Shown here: positions 6,398-39,650 of the stretch, in pieces | Layout: every line of letters begins with the position of its first letter | How positions within the stretch are numbered: the stretch's first letter is position 1 | Virus record (IMG/VR): IMGVR_UViG_3300042880_000509 | DNA: 64,000 nt | Direction: 5' to 3' (one strand) | Source: a virus | Taxonomy: Duplodnaviria > Heunggongvirae > Uroviricota > Caudoviricetes | Made by a program: the position numbers and the translations under genes | Notes under the pieces: model-generated | Told to the model about the DNA's origin: nothing | Databases searched by the model: none | Seen by the model: only the letters and a program-made list of their open reading frames with translations

Positions 6398-7936
6398 TTA
6401 TGGTTGCATTATTGTTGAAACATATTCATATGTTTCTTTTGGTAATTTATCTTTAAGGTCTTTAAATGATGTCTTGTTTTTTAATGCGTCAAAATAAACT
6501 TGTTTACCTGACTTTGGTGGGTATTGATACCATGCTCCACTATTATATGCGGCAATAGCAAGATCTAATCTTCCTGGGAATCTTCTAACATTTTCTGACA
6601 TTAGTTTTACATAAGCAGGTAAAGCGTCTTCAACCTTACAAGGATCACCTTTACCATATGAAGGCCAAGTTGTTGGCATAAATTGTGCGATACCTCTTGC
6701 TCCGGCTGTAGATGTATTTTTACAACTTATAACAGATGGTGAAAAAGCAGATTCGGCATATAATTGTCTCATGGCATATTTTATTGGGATTCCACCACTT
6801 TCAACCTCTGATTTAAATTTATTAAAATTAACGCCTTGTATATTTTTAAATTGTTCTTCTAAGTTTGATGGTATACTTCTTATTTTCACACCTGGATTTG
6901 TTATAACAAAAGATGTATTTTCTTCTGAACCACCTGACCCTTTTTTAACATCTTCAATTTGTCTACCAGAATATGTTTTAAATATCTTTTGGGTTAATTT
7001 ATCTTGGGTTTTTAAATCAAAAATTCCACTTTCGTTTAATCCATTATTTTTTTGGAATTTAGTAATTGCAACTTTAGTATTTCCATCAAGAATCCCATTA
7101 ATTTCTATTGAGTTATCTTTTGTTACGATAAACAATATTACTTGCATCATTCTTATTTTTTTGTCAGAACTATTTTGGTCAACAACTTCATTAGTTTTTA
7201 AAAATTCAAAGTATCTTTCAAAAAACTTTTTAAACTTTTCTTTTTTATCGTCATTAGTATTACCAGTTGTTTGGGTTTGGTTTGTCTTTTTTGTTTCTTT
7301 GATATAAGTCTCAACATGATCTTTAATTGTTTTGTGGTTTGATGGTCCTATGTGTATTCCATCTCCTGCCGCCCAATTACCATCACCACTTACCGTTGGT
7401 ATTATAATAGCATTTTTAATTTGTGAAGAAAGATCTTTTTGTAATTGGATCATTCTTTCTCTTCCTTTATACATACAATTTTGATCACAAAGGACTCTAC
7501 CATCTGGATATTTAGTTGGTTTTAAATTCTTATCTGTCATAACAGAACCCGCTTCATATCCTAAAAAAACATAAGCCTGACCACCTTGTTCATTAACAAC
7601 ATCTACCATTTTTTGGATGTTTGTTACGGCATTTGATAAATTGGTTCCTACCCAAAAAGCATCATTTGTTCCGCCGTATATGAATACTTTATCGTATTTT
7701 TTTTCTTTTAGTTTTGGTAACATATTACTCAACATCCAGTCTGTTTTTTTTCCTCCTTCAACAACATGAGTAACATTCCAGTCTGGGTGTGCTTTTGATA
7801 ACAAATAATTCCAGGTTTTTCCTCCGGTACTTAAACTGTCGCCAACAAACATGACATTTTCTTTAACTCTATCGTCATTTTCAGTTATTAAATTAACAAG
7901 AAATTTGAATTGGTTTTCAGAGACAAGTATTTTCAT
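6398..7936 (-). CDS. Three-domain cell-wall enzyme: SGNH/GDSL hydrolase, peptidoglycan-binding domain and SLT lytic transglycosylase, with shared leader
   Basis: FVGDSLS (GDS motif) and GGTND (SGNH block III). PG_binding_1-like VAITKFQKNNGLNESG. C-terminal ES...GARGIAQFMPTTW...AAYNSG (SLT family 1). N-terminus MKILVSENQFKFLVNLITE. Confidence 0.75.
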   Translation of the reverse strand: MKILVSENQFKFLVNLITENDDRVKENVMFVGDSLSTGGKTWNYLLSKAHPDWNVTHVVEGGKKTDWMLSNMLPKLKEKKYDKVFIYGGTNDAFWVGTNLSNAVTNIQKMVDVVNEQGGQAYVFLGYEAGSVMTDKNLKPTKYPDGRVLCDQNCMYKGRERMIQLQKDLSSQIKNAIIIPTVSGDGNWAAGDGIHIGPSNHKTIKDHVETYIKETKKTNQTQTTGNTNDDKKEKFKKFFERYFEFLKTNEVVDQNSSDKKIRMMQVILFIVTKDNSIEINGILDGNTKVAITKFQKNNGLNESGIFDLKTQDKLTQKIFKTYSGRQIEDVKKGSGGSEENTSFVITNPGVKIRSIPSNLEEQFKNIQGVNFNKFKSEVESGGIPIKYAMRQLYAESAFSPSVISCKNTSTAGARGIAQFMPTTWPSYGKGDPCKVEDALPAYVKLMSENVRRFPGRLDLAIAAYNSGAWYQYPPKSGKQVYFDALKNKTSFKDLKDKLPKETYEYVSTIMQP

Positions 7937-32570: not shown

Positions 32571-32777
32571 TTAAAACATTAAACCGACTAGTAAACCAAT
32601 ACCAAATCCGGCTAACATTAAAAGACCTGCTAGAGCTATAATATATTTTTTGAGTTTACCAAACTGAAAAATGTCAGTTGGTTTCGGAACTAGGTTTTTA
32701 TAAGCGTTTGGTTGTAGATTATTCATCATCTCATTGAGATTCTTCATCATGTTTGGGTCAAACATATTTTTATTCAT
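32571..32777 (-). CDS. Small membrane protein (68 aa)
   Basis: C-terminal helix IIALAGLLMLAGFGIGLLVGLMF. Confidence 0.45.
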   Translation of the reverse strand: MNKNMFDPNMMKNLNEMMNNLQPNAYKNLVPKPTDIFQFGKLKKYIIALAGLLMLAGFGIGLLVGLMF

Positions 32778-33560: not shown

Positions 33561-33600
33561 TTTTTAAAAAAACAAACCCCAACTTTTAGAATTGGGGTTA
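33561..33600 (-). terminator. Intrinsic terminator (AACCCCAA...TTGGGGTT plus T-run on the minus strand)
   Basis: 8-bp stem. Minus-strand downstream sequence is TTTGTTTTTTTAAAAAAAG. Confidence 0.65.
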
Positions 33601-33604
33601 AATA

Positions 33605-33856
33605 TTATTTCTCAATAGGTTTGACCATCTTTATATTGACGGTTGGTGTGTCCATCCATTGTCCGTTACACATTTTTATGGTACTCATTCCACTTTCATA
33701 TGATAATACCTGTGTTGCTTCAATTTGTGATCCGTCATTTAATATTACTAACTCATCACAAACTTTATCATTTTGGATTGAGATGTACACAAACCAACTA
33801 AATAATACAGATGTTAATATTATAAATAAAATTATAAAACTAAAATTTCTTATCAT
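33605..33856 (-). CDS. Small membrane protein (83 aa), co-transcribed with the SPFH protein
   Basis: N-terminal helix FSFIILFIILTSVLFSWFVYISI. 2-nt gap to the SPFH gene. Confidence 0.5.
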   Translation of the reverse strand: MIRNFSFIILFIILTSVLFSWFVYISIQNDKVCDELVILNDGSQIEATQVLSYESGMSTIKMCNGQWMDTPTVNIKMVKPIEK

Positions 33857-33857
33857 A

Positions 33858-34805
33858 TTATTTAATGTTTAAAAATGTTCCTGATCCACCCGCAACTGTT
33901 GTAGGAAGTTTTCCGTCCCAACTTTGTGCTTTCAAATATTCAACATAAAGAGGAGTTATTTCTTTTTGTTTTAATTTCATTGCCAAGGCCAAAGCTTGTG
34001 CGTCAATTATAACTTTTGCCGAATCACCACGGGCAATCGCGATTTTTTCTTGAGCTTCAGCTTCAGCAACTAACTTACGTTGTGTTGCAGCTTGTGCTTC
34101 CTGGACTGCTTTTGTTTTACCTTCAATTGCCTTTTGAAGAGACTCTGGCGGTGTGATATTAGTTCTTAACTGTGATACTTCAAACCATTTAGATAATCTT
34201 TTATTACACTCAGCAACAATTGCAGCTTCAAATTCTTCACGTTTATTAAAAATTGCATCTACCTCCCACTTATTGGCCACGTCATTCACTGAACTAACAA
34301 TCGCATTCATTAACCATCCTTGTTCAATTTGTTTTATATCCAATCTCAAGTTCTCAAACATATTCCCGATTGCTGTTGGTTTAAGTGAGTAGTTAAAACT
34401 TGGTTTAATTGTTGCTGCGAACCCACCTTTTGTAATTACAGTTTGATCCTTGTATTCAATATGTTGTTGGAATGTTGGAAACTCTAACATCTGTTCAGTC
34501 CAGGTATTATACATTACCCAACCAGTTTTATATTCATAACTTGATACACCTCGTTTGTCTCCAGTCAAATTAACTTTGATTCCAACGTGTCCTGCATCAA
34601 CTCTTTCAAGTGCGAATGGTTGAATACTAGAAATTACAATGCCTAACACAAAGATACCAATTGGTTTGAGTATCCACATTGTGTTAAACATTTGTTTACT
34701 ATCGCCCCATCTGTCTGTTCCTGTTACATACATTCGGTCTCTTGTTGTAAATACCACAAACCCGGCAATTACCAATCCTAAAATAAAAATTAAAGTACTA
34801 ATCAT
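33858..34805 (-). CDS. SPFH/Band-7 (HflK/C-prohibitin-like) membrane protein
   Basis: N-terminal TM helix, then ERVDAGHVGIKVN... and a long Ala/Gln/Glu-rich coiled region (KAVQEAQAATQRKLVAEAEAQEKIAIARGDSAKVIIDAQA) typical of the PHB domain and its C-terminal helix. Confidence 0.75.
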   Translation of the reverse strand: MISTLIFILGLVIAGFVVFTTRDRMYVTGTDRWGDSKQMFNTMWILKPIGIFVLGIVISSIQPFALERVDAGHVGIKVNLTGDKRGVSSYEYKTGWVMYNTWTEQMLEFPTFQQHIEYKDQTVITKGGFAATIKPSFNYSLKPTAIGNMFENLRLDIKQIEQGWLMNAIVSSVNDVANKWEVDAIFNKREEFEAAIVAECNKRLSKWFEVSQLRTNITPPESLQKAIEGKTKAVQEAQAATQRKLVAEAEAQEKIAIARGDSAKVIIDAQALALAMKLKQKEITPLYVEYLKAQSWDGKLPTTVAGGSGTFLNIK

Positions 34806-35004
34806 TTTTTTCTTCTTTTTTGTTAAATAATTTTATTGTTTCGTTTATTACATACATAAGGACCCCAACCAACCCAACGAAACTTAACAGTTGGAGGAAC
34901 CCGTTTACTTCTCTGCTGACGATGTATTCGCCAAACATTGTTCCGATTGCGATGAAGCCTAACCACATCAAAAAAACTTTAAAAAACTTCATTTTATTTT
35001 CCAT
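34798..35004 (-). CDS. Small membrane protein (68 aa)
   Basis: Two hydrophobic helices (FKVFLMWLGFIAIGTMFG, LLSFVGLVGVLMYVI). Confidence 0.45.
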   Translation of the reverse strand: MENKMKFFKVFLMWLGFIAIGTMFGEYIVSREVNGFLQLLSFVGLVGVLMYVINETIKLFNKKEEKND

Positions 35005-35006
35005 AT

Positions 35007-35405
35007 TTAATCATTTATAAAAACACAATTCTTAAACTCATAAACTTGTCCGGATCTTGAAGATATTACATCCAATTCAATACTATATCCGATAATGTTT
35101 AATTTTTCCGCCTTAAAGTTTTTACCTATTCCTATTGCTTTTAAATCAAATGGTGGATCAAATACAATCCCCTGTCTATATGATATCCTTTTAACAGTAT
35201 CGGTCCAAGTTGATAATCCGTATTTTCCTTTATACCTAAACTTTCTACCAACAAATCTTGGAATATCAAAACTTTCATCTTCAACATCTTTTGATAGTGG
35301 ATTTTTCTCACCTGTTAATTCTTCGTAATACGGATTAAGTTCTCCTGTGTATGGGTCGTGTGTTGGTATATTATTCATTATAAAGTCTATATAAACTTTC
35401 AGCAA
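35007..35405 (-). CDS. Hypothetical protein (132 aa)
   Basis: ORF. Confidence 0.5.
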   Translation of the reverse strand: MLKVYIDFIMNNIPTHDPYTGELNPYYEELTGEKNPLSKDVEDESFDIPRFVGRKFRYKGKYGLSTWTDTVKRISYRQGIVFDPPFDLKAIGIGKNFKAEKLNIIGYSIELDVISSRSGQVYEFKNCVFIND

Positions 35406-35556
35406 CTAATTTTAATCTTTTCTCAAGTTCGTTAACTTTTTTTCTATCTTCATCAGATATTTCAAAATTCTTTTGTTTAATATCTGAAATTTCATTGATG
35501 ATTTTTGTGTGCATTGTCATCAACTTTCCTTGTAATTCTCTTTTGTCTTGTGCCAT
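35371..35556 (-). CDS. Small coiled-coil protein (61 aa)
   Basis: ORF. Confidence 0.35.
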   Translation of the reverse strand: MAQDKRELQGKLMTMHTKIINEISDIKQKNFEISDEDRKKVNELEKRLKLVAESLYRLYNE

Positions 35557-35559
35557 ATC

Positions 35560-35847
35560 TTATTTTTTTACAATAGCTTTTGTGAGCTGGTTTATCAGTC
35601 CTTGGACTTCTCCGAAATTATTGAACCGGATTTGTGGATCGGTATTAAAAACCTCAACATACCAATTGTCTTCTTTTATTTCTTCATTTGTTGGTGTGAT
35701 AAATGTCAACCCATCAACAATATCAAGGGCATAGTAATACGAATCATCTTCATCGTGTTCTTTAATTTCTTCACTTTTAAAACCTAAAAGTATTAATTCT
35801 CTTTCTGTCATATTATTTTGTTTCAACAATGTTATAAGTTCCTTCAA
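35560..35847 (-). CDS. Hypothetical protein (95 aa)
   Basis: ORF. Confidence 0.45.
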   Translation of the reverse strand: MKELITLLKQNNMTERELILLGFKSEEIKEHDEDDSYYYALDIVDGLTFITPTNEEIKEDNWYVEVFNTDPQIRFNNFGEVQGLINQLTKAIVKK

Positions 35848-36076
35848 TTACCCCATAAGATGATTCTTCCTGAAACTGGTATGTTTCAGCAACATCACTA
35901 GAATCCATAGGTCTTGTTAAGTACCAGACTTGAGTTTCTTTCCAAGTCACTGTAACTAACTTTCTTCCTTTAGGTAGGTTGATTGTTCCTTTTCCACCCC
36001 AAGTTTTTACTCTTTCGTTCTCCGTACAAGATGTTATCATAACACCCATTAAAACCGTTAAAAATACTTTTTTCAT
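35813..36076 (-). CDS. Small lipoprotein (lipobox ITSC)
   Basis: MKKVFLTVLMGVMITSCTE is a signal peptide with a lipobox Cys. Confidence 0.55.
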   Translation of the reverse strand: MKKVFLTVLMGVMITSCTENERVKTWGGKGTINLPKGRKLVTVTWKETQVWYLTRPMDSSDVAETYQFQEESSYGVIEGTYNIVETK

Positions 36077-36327
36077 TTTATTAATTTTACTTTTATTATT
36101 TCACCTTTTCTATTTGTCTTATATTTCATTCTAAACGTGTCAACTAATATTGCGTTTTGTTCTTTCAGATACAAACAATTCCATTCACAACTATCATGAT
36201 GGTATAAATGTACATGTATTTCTTTTAATTTACCACACCTCAAATAGGTTATATCTTTGTAATTCCAATTTGAACAACTGGATAATACCAACAATACAAG
36301 TATAAGGATTTTATTTATCATAATCAA
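36073..36327 (-). CDS. Small lipoprotein (lipobox LSSC)
   Basis: MIMINKILILVLLVLSSCSNW. Confidence 0.55.
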   Translation of the reverse strand: MIMINKILILVLLVLSSCSNWNYKDITYLRCGKLKEIHVHLYHHDSCEWNCLYLKEQNAILVDTFRMKYKTNRKGEIIKVKLIK

Positions 36328-36539
36328 TTAGTTTGTTTAATTACGTATGGAGGACTAATTCTTACTTCACTACTATCGCTATTAAAGTAGTATACCGTAT
36401 CACCATCAAAACTAATTGTGTCTGTGTACCAGATTGCTGGATGTGGTCCTTCTTTAGTTTCAACAGTTCCTTCTATCTTATATTTGTATTCAGTCTGAGT
36501 ACAAGAAGTTAAAAATAATAATGCTAATAATTTTTTCAT
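36324..36539 (-). CDS. Small lipoprotein (lipobox LTSC)
   Basis: MKKLLALLFLTSCTQ. Confidence 0.55.
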   Translation of the reverse strand: MKKLLALLFLTSCTQTEYKYKIEGTVETKEGPHPAIWYTDTISFDGDTVYYFNSDSSEVRISPPYVIKQTN

Positions 36540-36802
36540 ATATCTCTTGATGTTAATTCGTTTAATATTTCTTCAACTTTTAGTTCACATTCTTTTATTT
36601 TTTTTGTGTGTAAAATGTATATCCCAATAATTAAAACCCAAAAAATAACAAAAAATAAAACAGTTGTAAGGTTAAAAATTAAAAGAATAGACTGTATAAT
36701 ACCCAAAATTGAAATTACAATCTGTGACCAGCAATGTGTATCCATTTTACGAACTTCAATGTATGCCATATCAATTAATTCACTATCCGTTAGATTCTTC
36801 AT
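36536..36802 (-). CDS. Small membrane protein (88 aa)
   Basis: Two TM helices (IVISILGIIQSILLIF, VLFFVIFWVLIIGIYIL). Confidence 0.5.
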   Translation of the reverse strand: MKNLTDSELIDMAYIEVRKMDTHCWSQIVISILGIIQSILLIFNLTTVLFFVIFWVLIIGIYILHTKKIKECELKVEEILNELTSRDI

Positions 36803-37037
36803 TTTTATTTTCTTTTGTGATTTTTTTGTGTTTAGTATAAAATTTCATCAATATCCCAATTAACTCTGGAATATTATCAAAGGCCCATCTTTCTGTTTCT
36901 ATAACATAGAAATCACCACCACCACCATCTTGAGTTTTAATTGTAAGATATTGTTCTTCACTACTACAACAATCTGCTTCTTGTGTGAAAGTCATCTGTA
37001 GTTCTTGATTTAAAAGATATGTTTTCTTATCTGTCAT
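36783..37037 (-). CDS. Hypothetical protein (84 aa)
   Basis: ORF. Confidence 0.4.
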   Translation of the reverse strand: MTDKKTYLLNQELQMTFTQEADCCSSEEQYLTIKTQDGGGGDFYVIETERWAFDNIPELIGILMKFYTKHKKITKENKNEESNG

Positions 37038-37139
37038 GGTTTATTCTTTAGACAAATATAATTCTTTTTTTTTGATTACACAAGTTTTATAATAATTTCC
37101 TAAGTAAAACAATTTAAATGTTTTTGTAAGTCCGAGTGT

Positions 37140-37346
37140 TTAATCCCGTGTAGATCCAACGAGTTCGTCTTTGAATAGTTCTTTTGTAAAAATGTTGTTC
37201 TTTGGGTCGTGTTCACCAAGATTGTATCCGGTAAAGGTACCATCATCAAAAGCAAACTTAACCATTAAAAAACCAAGTTCTGACACATAGATCTTATCTA
37301 GCTTACCAACTCCTTTTGGTGTTTCAATTAAAACTTCTTTTATCAT
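37140..37346 (-). CDS. Hypothetical protein (68 aa)
   Basis: ORF. Confidence 0.4.
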   Translation of the reverse strand: MIKEVLIETPKGVGKLDKIYVSELGFLMVKFAFDDGTFTGYNLGEHDPKNNIFTKELFKDELVGSTRD

Positions 37347-37648
37347 ATCACGTAAGTTATAACACCATTTTCTTCAACTACTTCTAAAACCCCATCATTT
37401 TCTGAAAGTTTTTCTAATTGATCTGGAGTTAAATTCACACTATCTGGTCCTTGAAACACTTTAAATGGTTGTGTTAATTTTAATCTTGAATCTGTAATCA
37501 AATTCAAAGTCATTTCATTTTCGCATTCAACCAAAGTTGGGTATTGTCCTCCAACTGTAACAATTACCTTATCACCAACATTAATTTCATCAAGAGATGC
37601 TAGGTATGGTTTTTCATCAACGATGAATAATTTTACTTTCTTTGTCAT
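37343..37648 (-). CDS. Hypothetical protein (101 aa)
   Basis: ORF. Confidence 0.45.
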   Translation of the reverse strand: MTKKVKLFIVDEKPYLASLDEINVGDKVIVTVGGQYPTLVECENEMTLNLITDSRLKLTQPFKVFQGPDSVNLTPDQLEKLSENDGVLEVVEENGVITYVI

Positions 37649-38031
37649 TTTTCAATATTAAAATTTAATAGAGTTTCAACTTCTTGATTTTTTGTTTCAA
37701 CAATTGGTCCCCACTCTCCTTTATACGTTATACCTCTTACAGGTTTATTATCAATCCAAACATATTCTTCATCTTCAGAACATCTTGGTTTATCAGTTAT
37801 CAAATCATTAAACTTAAATCCGTGTCTCCATAACCAGGCGAGTGTAGTTCCTTTATCTTTATATTCTCTGGCGGTAAAGAAAACTATTTTATTTCCTTCA
37901 TCATAAAGTTTATTTATTTCTTCTTTGGATCCTTCGTATGGTTTTGCGATTGGGTATAGATAGCTATCCTCATTTTTAATGTCGTCACATACAGTTCCAT
38001 CAATGTCAATTAAATAAACTCTTTTTTTCAT
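37645..38031 (-). CDS. HAD-superfamily phosphatase (small, 128 aa)
   Basis: Motif I LIDIDGTV (DxDGT). Motif II VFFTAR. Confidence 0.55.
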   Translation of the reverse strand: MKKRVYLIDIDGTVCDDIKNEDSYLYPIAKPYEGSKEEINKLYDEGNKIVFFTAREYKDKGTTLAWLWRHGFKFNDLITDKPRCSEDEEYVWIDNKPVRGITYKGEWGPIVETKNQEVETLLNFNIEK

Positions 38032-38342
38032 AACCTCAAATCGTTTTTAGCGTTCATAGTTATAATATAATCCATTAAATTTTTAACTAAAGAATCGGCA
38101 TCAACTTTTTCGTATAATTCTGGGTATCTGTCTTGAAGTAGTTTATTCTCTTCATACTCTCTACAACTTGAGAGGATGTCTGAAAGCATTGATCTTAACA
38201 TATGTTCTTTATCATATGTATCTTCAACTTTTCTTTCCAATACTTGACCTTCAAGTTCTTGAGTATATTCAATAAGTTCTTGGACTTCAGGTTTTTCAAG
38301 AAGATCAGGTCGTCTACGAAATAGTTGTTTTATGTTTTTCAT
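38028..38342 (-). CDS. Hypothetical protein (104 aa)
   Basis: ORF. Confidence 0.45.
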   Translation of the reverse strand: MKNIKQLFRRRPDLLEKPEVQELIEYTQELEGQVLERKVEDTYDKEHMLRSMLSDILSSCREYEENKLLQDRYPELYEKVDADSLVKNLMDYIITMNAKNDLRL

Positions 38343-38884
38343 TCCAAAAACTTTAATATTTTTTCTTTAATACCTGATTGTTTTATTCCTTCGTTGTGTG
38401 GTCGTTTACAATGAATAAAGTTCTCAAGTCCCCAACCATCTCGTTTTGACATATCAAGATCATCAACAGCAACCCAATTTGTTACTTCCGGATGTTCTTT
38501 TAACCAATGTAAAATTTCAATATGTCGTTCGTATTCTATTTTATTAAAATATGGTAAAAGAAAATCATCCGGCAATTTACCTTCACGAAATAGAACACTA
38601 CAAAATGCTGTTATATCAATTGGTGGTTTAATTCCACGAGTAACAAACATTTCTTTTATTTGTTCTAATGTTCCGTGTTTTTTCCAATCAGATGAAATAA
38701 CTAATTCACAACCGGTTTTTTCTACGATTTCATTTAATACTTTAACAGCTTTTTGATTGAAGCTGTCCATTCGGATATCCATGGGAGTTTCCGGATTTGA
38801 GTCAAATCCTTTTTTCTTGTATCGTCCGCCCCATTCAGAAGAAAGACAAATTACACCATCGTGATCTAAGAACATTACTTTCAT
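38339..38884 (-). CDS. Putative HAD-like phosphatase (181 aa)
   Basis: N-terminal MFLDHDGVI fits DxDG[TV]. The rest is unassigned. Confidence 0.4.
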   Translation of the reverse strand: MKVMFLDHDGVICLSSEWGGRYKKKGFDSNPETPMDIRMDSFNQKAVKVLNEIVEKTGCELVISSDWKKHGTLEQIKEMFVTRGIKPPIDITAFCSVLFREGKLPDDFLLPYFNKIEYERHIEILHWLKEHPEVTNWVAVDDLDMSKRDGWGLENFIHCKRPHNEGIKQSGIKEKILKFLE

Positions 38885-38921
38885 AGATACAAAGATAATA
38901 AATTAAAATTGAATTTACAAA

Positions 38922-39650
38922 TTAATAAATGTTAAACTTAATTGGTATGTTTAACCTTGATCTAACATTCACTTTATTAATTCTACCTGGAATCCATTTA
39001 GGCGAACTTTTAATTACCCTTCTTGCTTCTCTGTCTACTTCAAAGCTAACCCCTTTTGTTACTTTTACATCACCAATACTTCCATCAGTTTCAACTATAA
39101 ACATAACATATACAGTTCCTTGATCCCCATTCTCAATTGCAATCTCAGGATATTTCATTTCCTTTAAAAGATATTTTTTCCATTCCTCATATCCTCCAGG
39201 AAATTCAGCTTCAATATCAGGAAAATCCTCAACCTTATCTGGAGCCACAACAGGGACAGGATCTACATTAACAAGTACAGTTGTATCTCCTTTTGGTAAA
39301 CCTAAATCAACAAAAGGATTGTTATCGGTGGGTCCGGTGTTTGATGTAGTGTCAACATCACTATTTAAATCCAAAGTTTCATCTTTTTGTGATTCTGATT
39401 GTGGTTGTGGTTGTTCTTTTGGTGGTTCAACAACTGGTGGTTTTTCGGTTGCGTCAACCAATAAATTGGTGTTTTCGGGTGATAATCTTTTGAATTTTTC
39501 TTCAATTGGTTCTGTTTTTCCGTATGAGACTGCAGCTAAAACAATCCCGCTAATAAAACAAAGACCAGCCATAAAATTACCTAATTTTTTTTCTTCTAAA
39601 TTGTGATTACTTTTCTTTTCCATAACTATTATTTTCGTTATGGAATACAA
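38922..39650 (-). CDS. TonB-like protein: N-terminal TM anchor, Pro-rich spacer, TonB C-terminal domain
   Basis: TM helix LGNFMAGLCFISGIVLAAV. Spacer KPPVVEPPKEQPQPQSESQ. C-terminus EFPGGYEEWKKYLLKEMKYPEIAIENGDQGTVYVMFIVETDGSIGDVKVTKGVSFEVDREARRVIKSSPKWIPG matches the TonB_C signature. Confidence 0.6.
   Translation of the reverse strand: MYSITKIIVMEKKSNHNLEEKKLGNFMAGLCFISGIVLAAVSYGKTEPIEEKFKRLSPENTNLLVDATEKPPVVEPPKEQPQPQSESQKDETLDLNSDVDTTSNTGPTDNNPFVDLGLPKGDTTVLVNVDPVPVVAPDKVEDFPDIEAEFPGGYEEWKKYLLKEMKYPEIAIENGDQGTVYVMFIVETDGSIGDVKVTKGVSFEVDREARRVIKSSPKWIPGRINKVNVRSRLNIPIKFNIY

Follow-up and report, generated by a model that had tools for sequence, protein, structure and literature searches.

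Does a crowded stretch of membrane-protein genes in a phage genome amount to one functional module, or to several units that are gained and lost separately? The question arises between 32.5 and 39.7 kb of the window (the whole stretch of 64,000 nucleotides analysed here), where 9 of the 21 called genes encode membrane proteins or lipoproteins, against 7 of the 88 in the rest of the window. This enrichment is significant when the interval is compared with the remaining window (Fisher p = 3.5e-4), a post hoc value since the interval was picked by eye. The sequence belongs to a large environmental phage that probably infects freshwater Flavobacteriales. It encodes a virion protein with an endolysin domain, an RNA ligase and clamp-loader-like ATPases, and its IMG/VR relatives include contigs of up to 304 kb. 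The host is probably a member of the Crocinitomicaceae (Flavobacteriales), an assignment based on TonB similarity and low GC content and nothing else. The interval contains the following features.

32571-32777, minus strand: 68-aa protein, TM segment at the C-terminus; lies past the terminator, slightly beyond the interval considered earlier
33575-33599, minus strand: intrinsic terminator-like hairpin (10-bp stem with 4 GC pairs, then a T-run), straight after the p83 stop
33605-33856, minus strand: p83, 83 aa, N-terminal TM segment or signal anchor, then a small domain in which two Cys are conserved
33858-34805, minus strand: SPFH/Band-7 protein, 315 aa, phrog_200 (Pfam, PHROG)
34798-35004, minus strand: p68, 68 aa, two TM segments (synteny, overlap with SPFH, conservation)
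35813-36076, minus strand: lipoprotein 1, 87 aa, phrog_12728, lipobox ..ITSC
36073-36327, minus strand: lipoprotein 2, 84 aa, lipobox ..LSSC
36324-36539, minus strand: lipoprotein 3, 71 aa, lipobox ..LTSC
36536-36802, minus strand: tm88, 88 aa, about 45 hydrophobic residues at the core, probably spanning the membrane twice, with a charged C-terminus
37645-38884, minus strand: soluble genes between the lipoprotein block and TonB, including a HAD/acid-phosphatase-like gene (37645-38031) and a HAD_SAK_2 gene (38339-38884)
38922-39623, minus strand: TonB, 233 aa (Pfam, NCBIfam, family alignment, AF2 model)

The GC content of the window is only about 30% and many spurious ORFs lie on the opposite strand, as would be expected if the small ORFs were chance ORFs in AT-rich DNA and their clustering an artefact. 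However, all of them were conserved in many contigs of a comparison set of about 90 related phage contigs, with dN/dS values of 0.08–0.41, the lipobox Cys and further motifs were retained, and the genes were tightly packed with overlaps of 4–8 nt. The conservation analysis refuted the chance explanation, to which we attach practically no weight: the cluster ORFs are real genes under purifying selection. The individual identifications of the earlier note stood up well. Every ORF that it listed was found on the minus strand where it had been placed, domain, TM and lipobox evidence agreed on envelope proteins, and the small TM proteins were present at 33605-33856, 34798-35004 (two TM segments) and 36536-36802, with that at 32571-32777 falling just outside.

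The distribution of these genes among relatives was examined in a presence and synteny matrix of 82 SPFH loci. Most SPFH loci were without TonB, and the TonB-bearing contigs L002 and L084–L090 carried neither SPFH nor lipoprotein genes within 10 kb. The TonB gene corresponded to a clean indel of about 760 bp relative to L012 and L017; in these two contigs and in L032 and L039, genes 23 and 21 abutted directly, with no TonB. Contig L143 held TonB, lipoproteins 1 and 2, tm88 and p83 and lacked lipoprotein 3 and the p68 and SPFH genes, the junction showing microhomology. As judged from gene content, the approximately 7 kb of packed membrane-protein genes is made of at least three independently gained or lost units and is not a single co-inherited module.

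The most notable element of the interval is the phage TonB, for which no earlier description in a phage was found. The ORF at 38922-39650 matched TonB_C (PF03544, E = 6e-16) and scored 42 bits with TIGR01352 (cutoff 27.1); together with the fold and the alignment, these matches confirmed the TonB architecture previously recognised. The mechanically called ORF runs out to a TTG at 39650. The true start is the ATG at 39623 and not this TTG, because all homologs start with MEKKS. The N-terminus carries a cytoplasmic MEKKSNHNLEEKK motif followed by one TM helix (approximately residues 16–36), a disordered linker of about 100 aa including KPPVVEPPKEQPQPQ, and the TonB_C domain (residues 135–233). 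In the AF2 model, this C-terminal domain (CTD) had pLDDT values of 83–93. The top 17 Foldseek matches of the model were all TonB, HasB or FusB CTDs, and a profile search against the PDB returned TonB and HasB alone. The phage family comprised about 45 full-length members in at least three phage backgrounds, with identities of 46–96%. Pairwise identity was 65% in the N-terminus, 69% in the TM segment, 49% in the linker and 67% in the CTD, the N-terminal and TM region being conserved equally to the CTD.

Short-class TonBs of cellular Bacteroidota, such as the stand-alone tonB genes of Crocinitomicaceae, start with ME.KKS...LE.KR followed by a TM segment; B. thetaiotaomicron possesses 11 TonB homologs (PMC10350073). 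Every architectural element of the cellular proteins was kept in the phage TonB: the N-terminal cytoplasmic motif, common to cellular Crocinitomicaceae TonBs, the single TM helix with common Gly, Ala and aromatic positions, the disordered periplasmic linker, and a TonB_C domain that has both the YP motif and the fold of TonB CTDs. The lengths were also similar (233 aa, compared with 224–236 aa in the cellular short class). Unlike cellular TonBs, it is phage-encoded, occurs in three or more genomic backgrounds and is never accompanied by exbBD, and its linker is less proline-rich, with a conserved VDLGLPKGDTTVIV segment. The closest cellular relatives were Crocinitomicaceae TonBs, the nearest at just 30–35% identity over the full length, and the phage proteins formed their own clade of about 45 clusters, apart from cellular TonBs. 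On this comparative evidence, the phage TonB is a host-derived copy.

The SPFH assignment of the earlier note was borne out by Pfam Band_7 (PF01145, E = 2.8e-22, 80 bits for a cutoff of 23.6) and by phrog_200 (E = 1.3e-52). The protein starts with TM1, a variable charged loop and TM2 ending in QPFALERVDAG, followed by the SPFH domain (residues 68–243) and an Ala/Glu/Gln-rich C-terminal region. The gene had a dN/dS of 0.085 and the membrane anchor was conserved throughout the lineage. Directly upstream, p68 (dN/dS 0.26) was present in 72 of the 82 SPFH loci, down to 64% SPFH identity, and the loop between its TM segments (GEYIVSREVNGFLQLL) is conserved; the end of the gene shares 8 nt with the beginning of SPFH (ATGATTAG), and in the otherwise colinear L143 the two genes were missing together as an exact pair. 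Synteny and conservation thus mark p68 as the conserved partner of SPFH in a two-gene cassette. Upstream two-TM ORFs of 68–83 aa also adjoin SPFH in Stenotrophomonas phage BUCTxx99 and Agrobacterium phage OLIVR5, and Kayvirus has the MbpV/MbpS pair (PMC7150955). Across these phage groups the partners had a common architecture only, with no detectable sequence similarity, and phages FL-1 and Pokken were without a two-TM partner.

A homolog of the SPFH protein was present in 594 phage records. The phrog_200 proteins, labelled "lipoprotein" or "prohibitin family protein" and including MbpS, occur in crAss-like, Stenotrophomonas, Agrobacterium, Pseudomonas and Staphylococcus phages. Pairing with a neighbouring small TM protein is seen repeatedly, and no member has an experimentally shown function. 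The lipoprotein-type members are held in the membrane by a lipobox Cys, which in four unrelated phages is located exactly where the window protein has SSIQPFALERVDAG; the lineage of the window replaced this anchor by an uncleaved hairpin, and the SPFH domain would face the periplasm. This topology is suggested by similarity to the lipoprotein-type members; the distribution of charges flanking the hairpin is not decisive. It agrees with HflK/HflC and the prohibitins, which build SPFH cages around FtsH/AAA proteases on the periplasmic or intermembrane-space side. Like HflK/HflC, the phage protein has an N-terminal membrane anchor, and its SPFH domain and C-terminal helical region align with prohibitin-1 over residues 46–275. 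It is not an HflK ortholog (TIGR01933, 19 bits for a cutoff of 159), and it differs by being a single gene rather than a K/C pair, by its two-segment hairpin, and by a 68-aa two-TM partner instead of FtsH or NfeD.

On the other side of SPFH, p83 (no Pfam NfeD match) begins after a gap of only 2 nt, and the hairpin which follows it is the sole strong coding-strand terminator between 33.6 and 41 kb. Co-transcription of p83 with SPFH, as claimed earlier, is therefore plausible. As the conserved SPFH partner, p83 was rejected: it was present in 23 of the 82 SPFH loci and persisted in the SPFH-less L143, beside gene 9. The p83 gene closes the transcription unit, and whether it is present varies independently of SPFH.

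The three back-to-back lipoproteins described earlier were confirmed by successive 4-nt overlaps and by lipobox Cys kept in relatives; each of them, like tm88, was present in some relatives and absent from others. Lipoprotein 1 (dN/dS 0.10), whose small domain combines one helix with five beta-strands, showed 78–100% identity over the 120 clusters listed. Its family of phage lipoproteins, 911 clusters in all, extends to Bacillus and Brevibacillus myophages, with homologs 39–51% identical in Bacillus phages. Because these hosts are Gram-positive, masking of an outer-membrane receptor is disfavoured, and the exclusion idea is weakened for this protein by its high conservation as well. Lipoprotein 2 (dN/dS 0.25) diverged rapidly, with 52–77% identity where neighbours had 80–99%, and its mature part contained a conserved His/Cys-rich motif, C..IHVHLYxHxxCxWxC. 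Lipoprotein 3 (dN/dS 0.13) was present or absent between close relatives; it is possibly a distant paralog of lipoprotein 1 (hhalign probability 90.6%, part of the score coming from the signal peptide). The tm88 protein was very divergent (39–58% among relatives, one at 92%; dN/dS 0.35). As variable genes, lipoproteins 2 and 3 and tm88 would be likelier than lipoprotein 1 to serve strain-specific functions, exclusion for instance. No protein of the interval matched an exclusion-annotated PHROG or any PADLOC model. T5 Llp, phi80/N15 Cor and the spanin o-subunits are likewise small phage-encoded lipobox lipoproteins, with no sequence or PHROG relationship to those of the interval in the PHROG search; unlike them, lipoprotein 1 also occurs in phages of Gram-positive hosts.

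We propose, as the somewhat favoured explanation, that the interval is an accessory-gene hot-spot holding at least three independently inherited, envelope-directed units with the roles described here, read in one direction and ending at the terminator past p83; all the mechanistic steps are ones that we infer. The TonB would insert into the host ExbB-ExbD motor and touch the TonB boxes of host TonB-dependent transporters, most likely sustaining or re-directing TonB-dependent uptake in infection. The p68 and SPFH genes would form a translationally coupled cassette. Its SPFH protein, held by the TM hairpin, would expose the SPFH domain to the periplasm, like HflK/C, and might oligomerise into a ring- or cage-like assembly above the inner membrane, with p68 as client or co-anchor. 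In infected cells, such an assembly could make the membrane more stable, divide it into compartments, or tune the activity of a host membrane protease such as FtsH. The lipoprotein and tm88 genes would be exchangeable one by one, and lipoprotein 1 would act not on an outer-membrane receptor but on a structure that both Gram types possess, either the cell wall or the outer surface of the cytoplasmic membrane.

The earlier note had instead read the co-localisation as one functional module, in which lipoproteins would mask receptors while TonB and SPFH alter the envelope, excluding superinfecting phages. The small lipoproteins Llp of T5 and Cor of phi80 do block the TonB-dependent receptor FhuA. 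The membrane proteins are enriched in the interval, the genes are co-oriented with no internal coding-strand terminator, and most of the arrangement is common to the window, L013 and L143. Bacteroidota TonB-dependent transporters were also proposed as phage receptors, on docking evidence only (PMC10028833). Nevertheless, the units come and go separately, as in L002, L084–L090 and L143, other phages show no linkage between TonB and SPFH, soluble genes lie among the units, lipoprotein 1 is kept in phages of Gram-positive hosts and no exclusion or defence family was matched. We therefore consider a single module unlikely; the co-orientation and the lack of internal terminators remain compatible with co-expression and a common physiological theme. 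It is more improbable still that tm88 or p68 (holin-like), the lipoproteins (o-spanin-like) and p68/SPFH form a lysis or lysis-timing apparatus. The precedent is Kayvirus, where MbpS and the holin-like MbpV lie beside the endolysin gene (PMC7150955), and tm88 and p68 are indeed small, each having roughly two TM segments and a charged C-terminus; the lipoproteins too are small, with mutual overlaps between their genes. However, Pfam and PHROG searches revealed no endolysin in or adjoining the interval (the only lysozyme-type domain found was in a 512-aa virion-type protein at 6398-7936) and no ORF had the long periplasmic coiled coil expected of an i-spanin. Essential lysis genes would also not vary among close relatives, as lipoproteins 1 and 3 and SPFH do.

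For the TonB itself, the alternative is competition with the host protein. A dominant-negative TonB would titrate ExbB/ExbD or fill TonB boxes without productive energy transfer, shutting TonB-dependent receptors and blocking TonB-dependent superinfecting phages or bacteriocins. In E. coli, over-produced TonB fragments inhibit TonB-dependent transport, and irreversible adsorption of phages T1 and phi80 requires TonB. The gene is an orphan, with no Pfam match to ExbB or ExbD on the TonB-bearing phage contigs scanned or among the scanned window proteins, and it is strongly divergent from cellular TonBs, its linker differing from the poly-Pro linkers of the cellular relatives. The less proline-rich linker is a caveat to the motor reading, and so is the stand-alone position of the closest cellular tonB genes, whose own tie to ExbBD is presumptive. 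Against interference, one end of the protein would suffice, yet conservation extends to the N-terminal/TM region as well as the CTD, the length is constant across the family (229–248 aa) and dN/dS (0.12) is low over the entire gene. Interference is thus doubtful, and we prefer a productive TonB.

Two further observations were made. Among the soluble genes separating the units, which include two HAD-type phosphatases, lies a 104-aa ORF. A 735-kb metagenomic megaphage (LR756501/LR756503) carries an unannotated full-length TonB (TM segment, poly-Pro linker, TonB_C) with a CTD 49% identical to that of the window. Its N-terminal FDEILFEKRNKEYGSY motif, as in PF28545-bearing cellular proteins, places it in the other Bacteroidota TonB class and so marks it as an independent acquisition.

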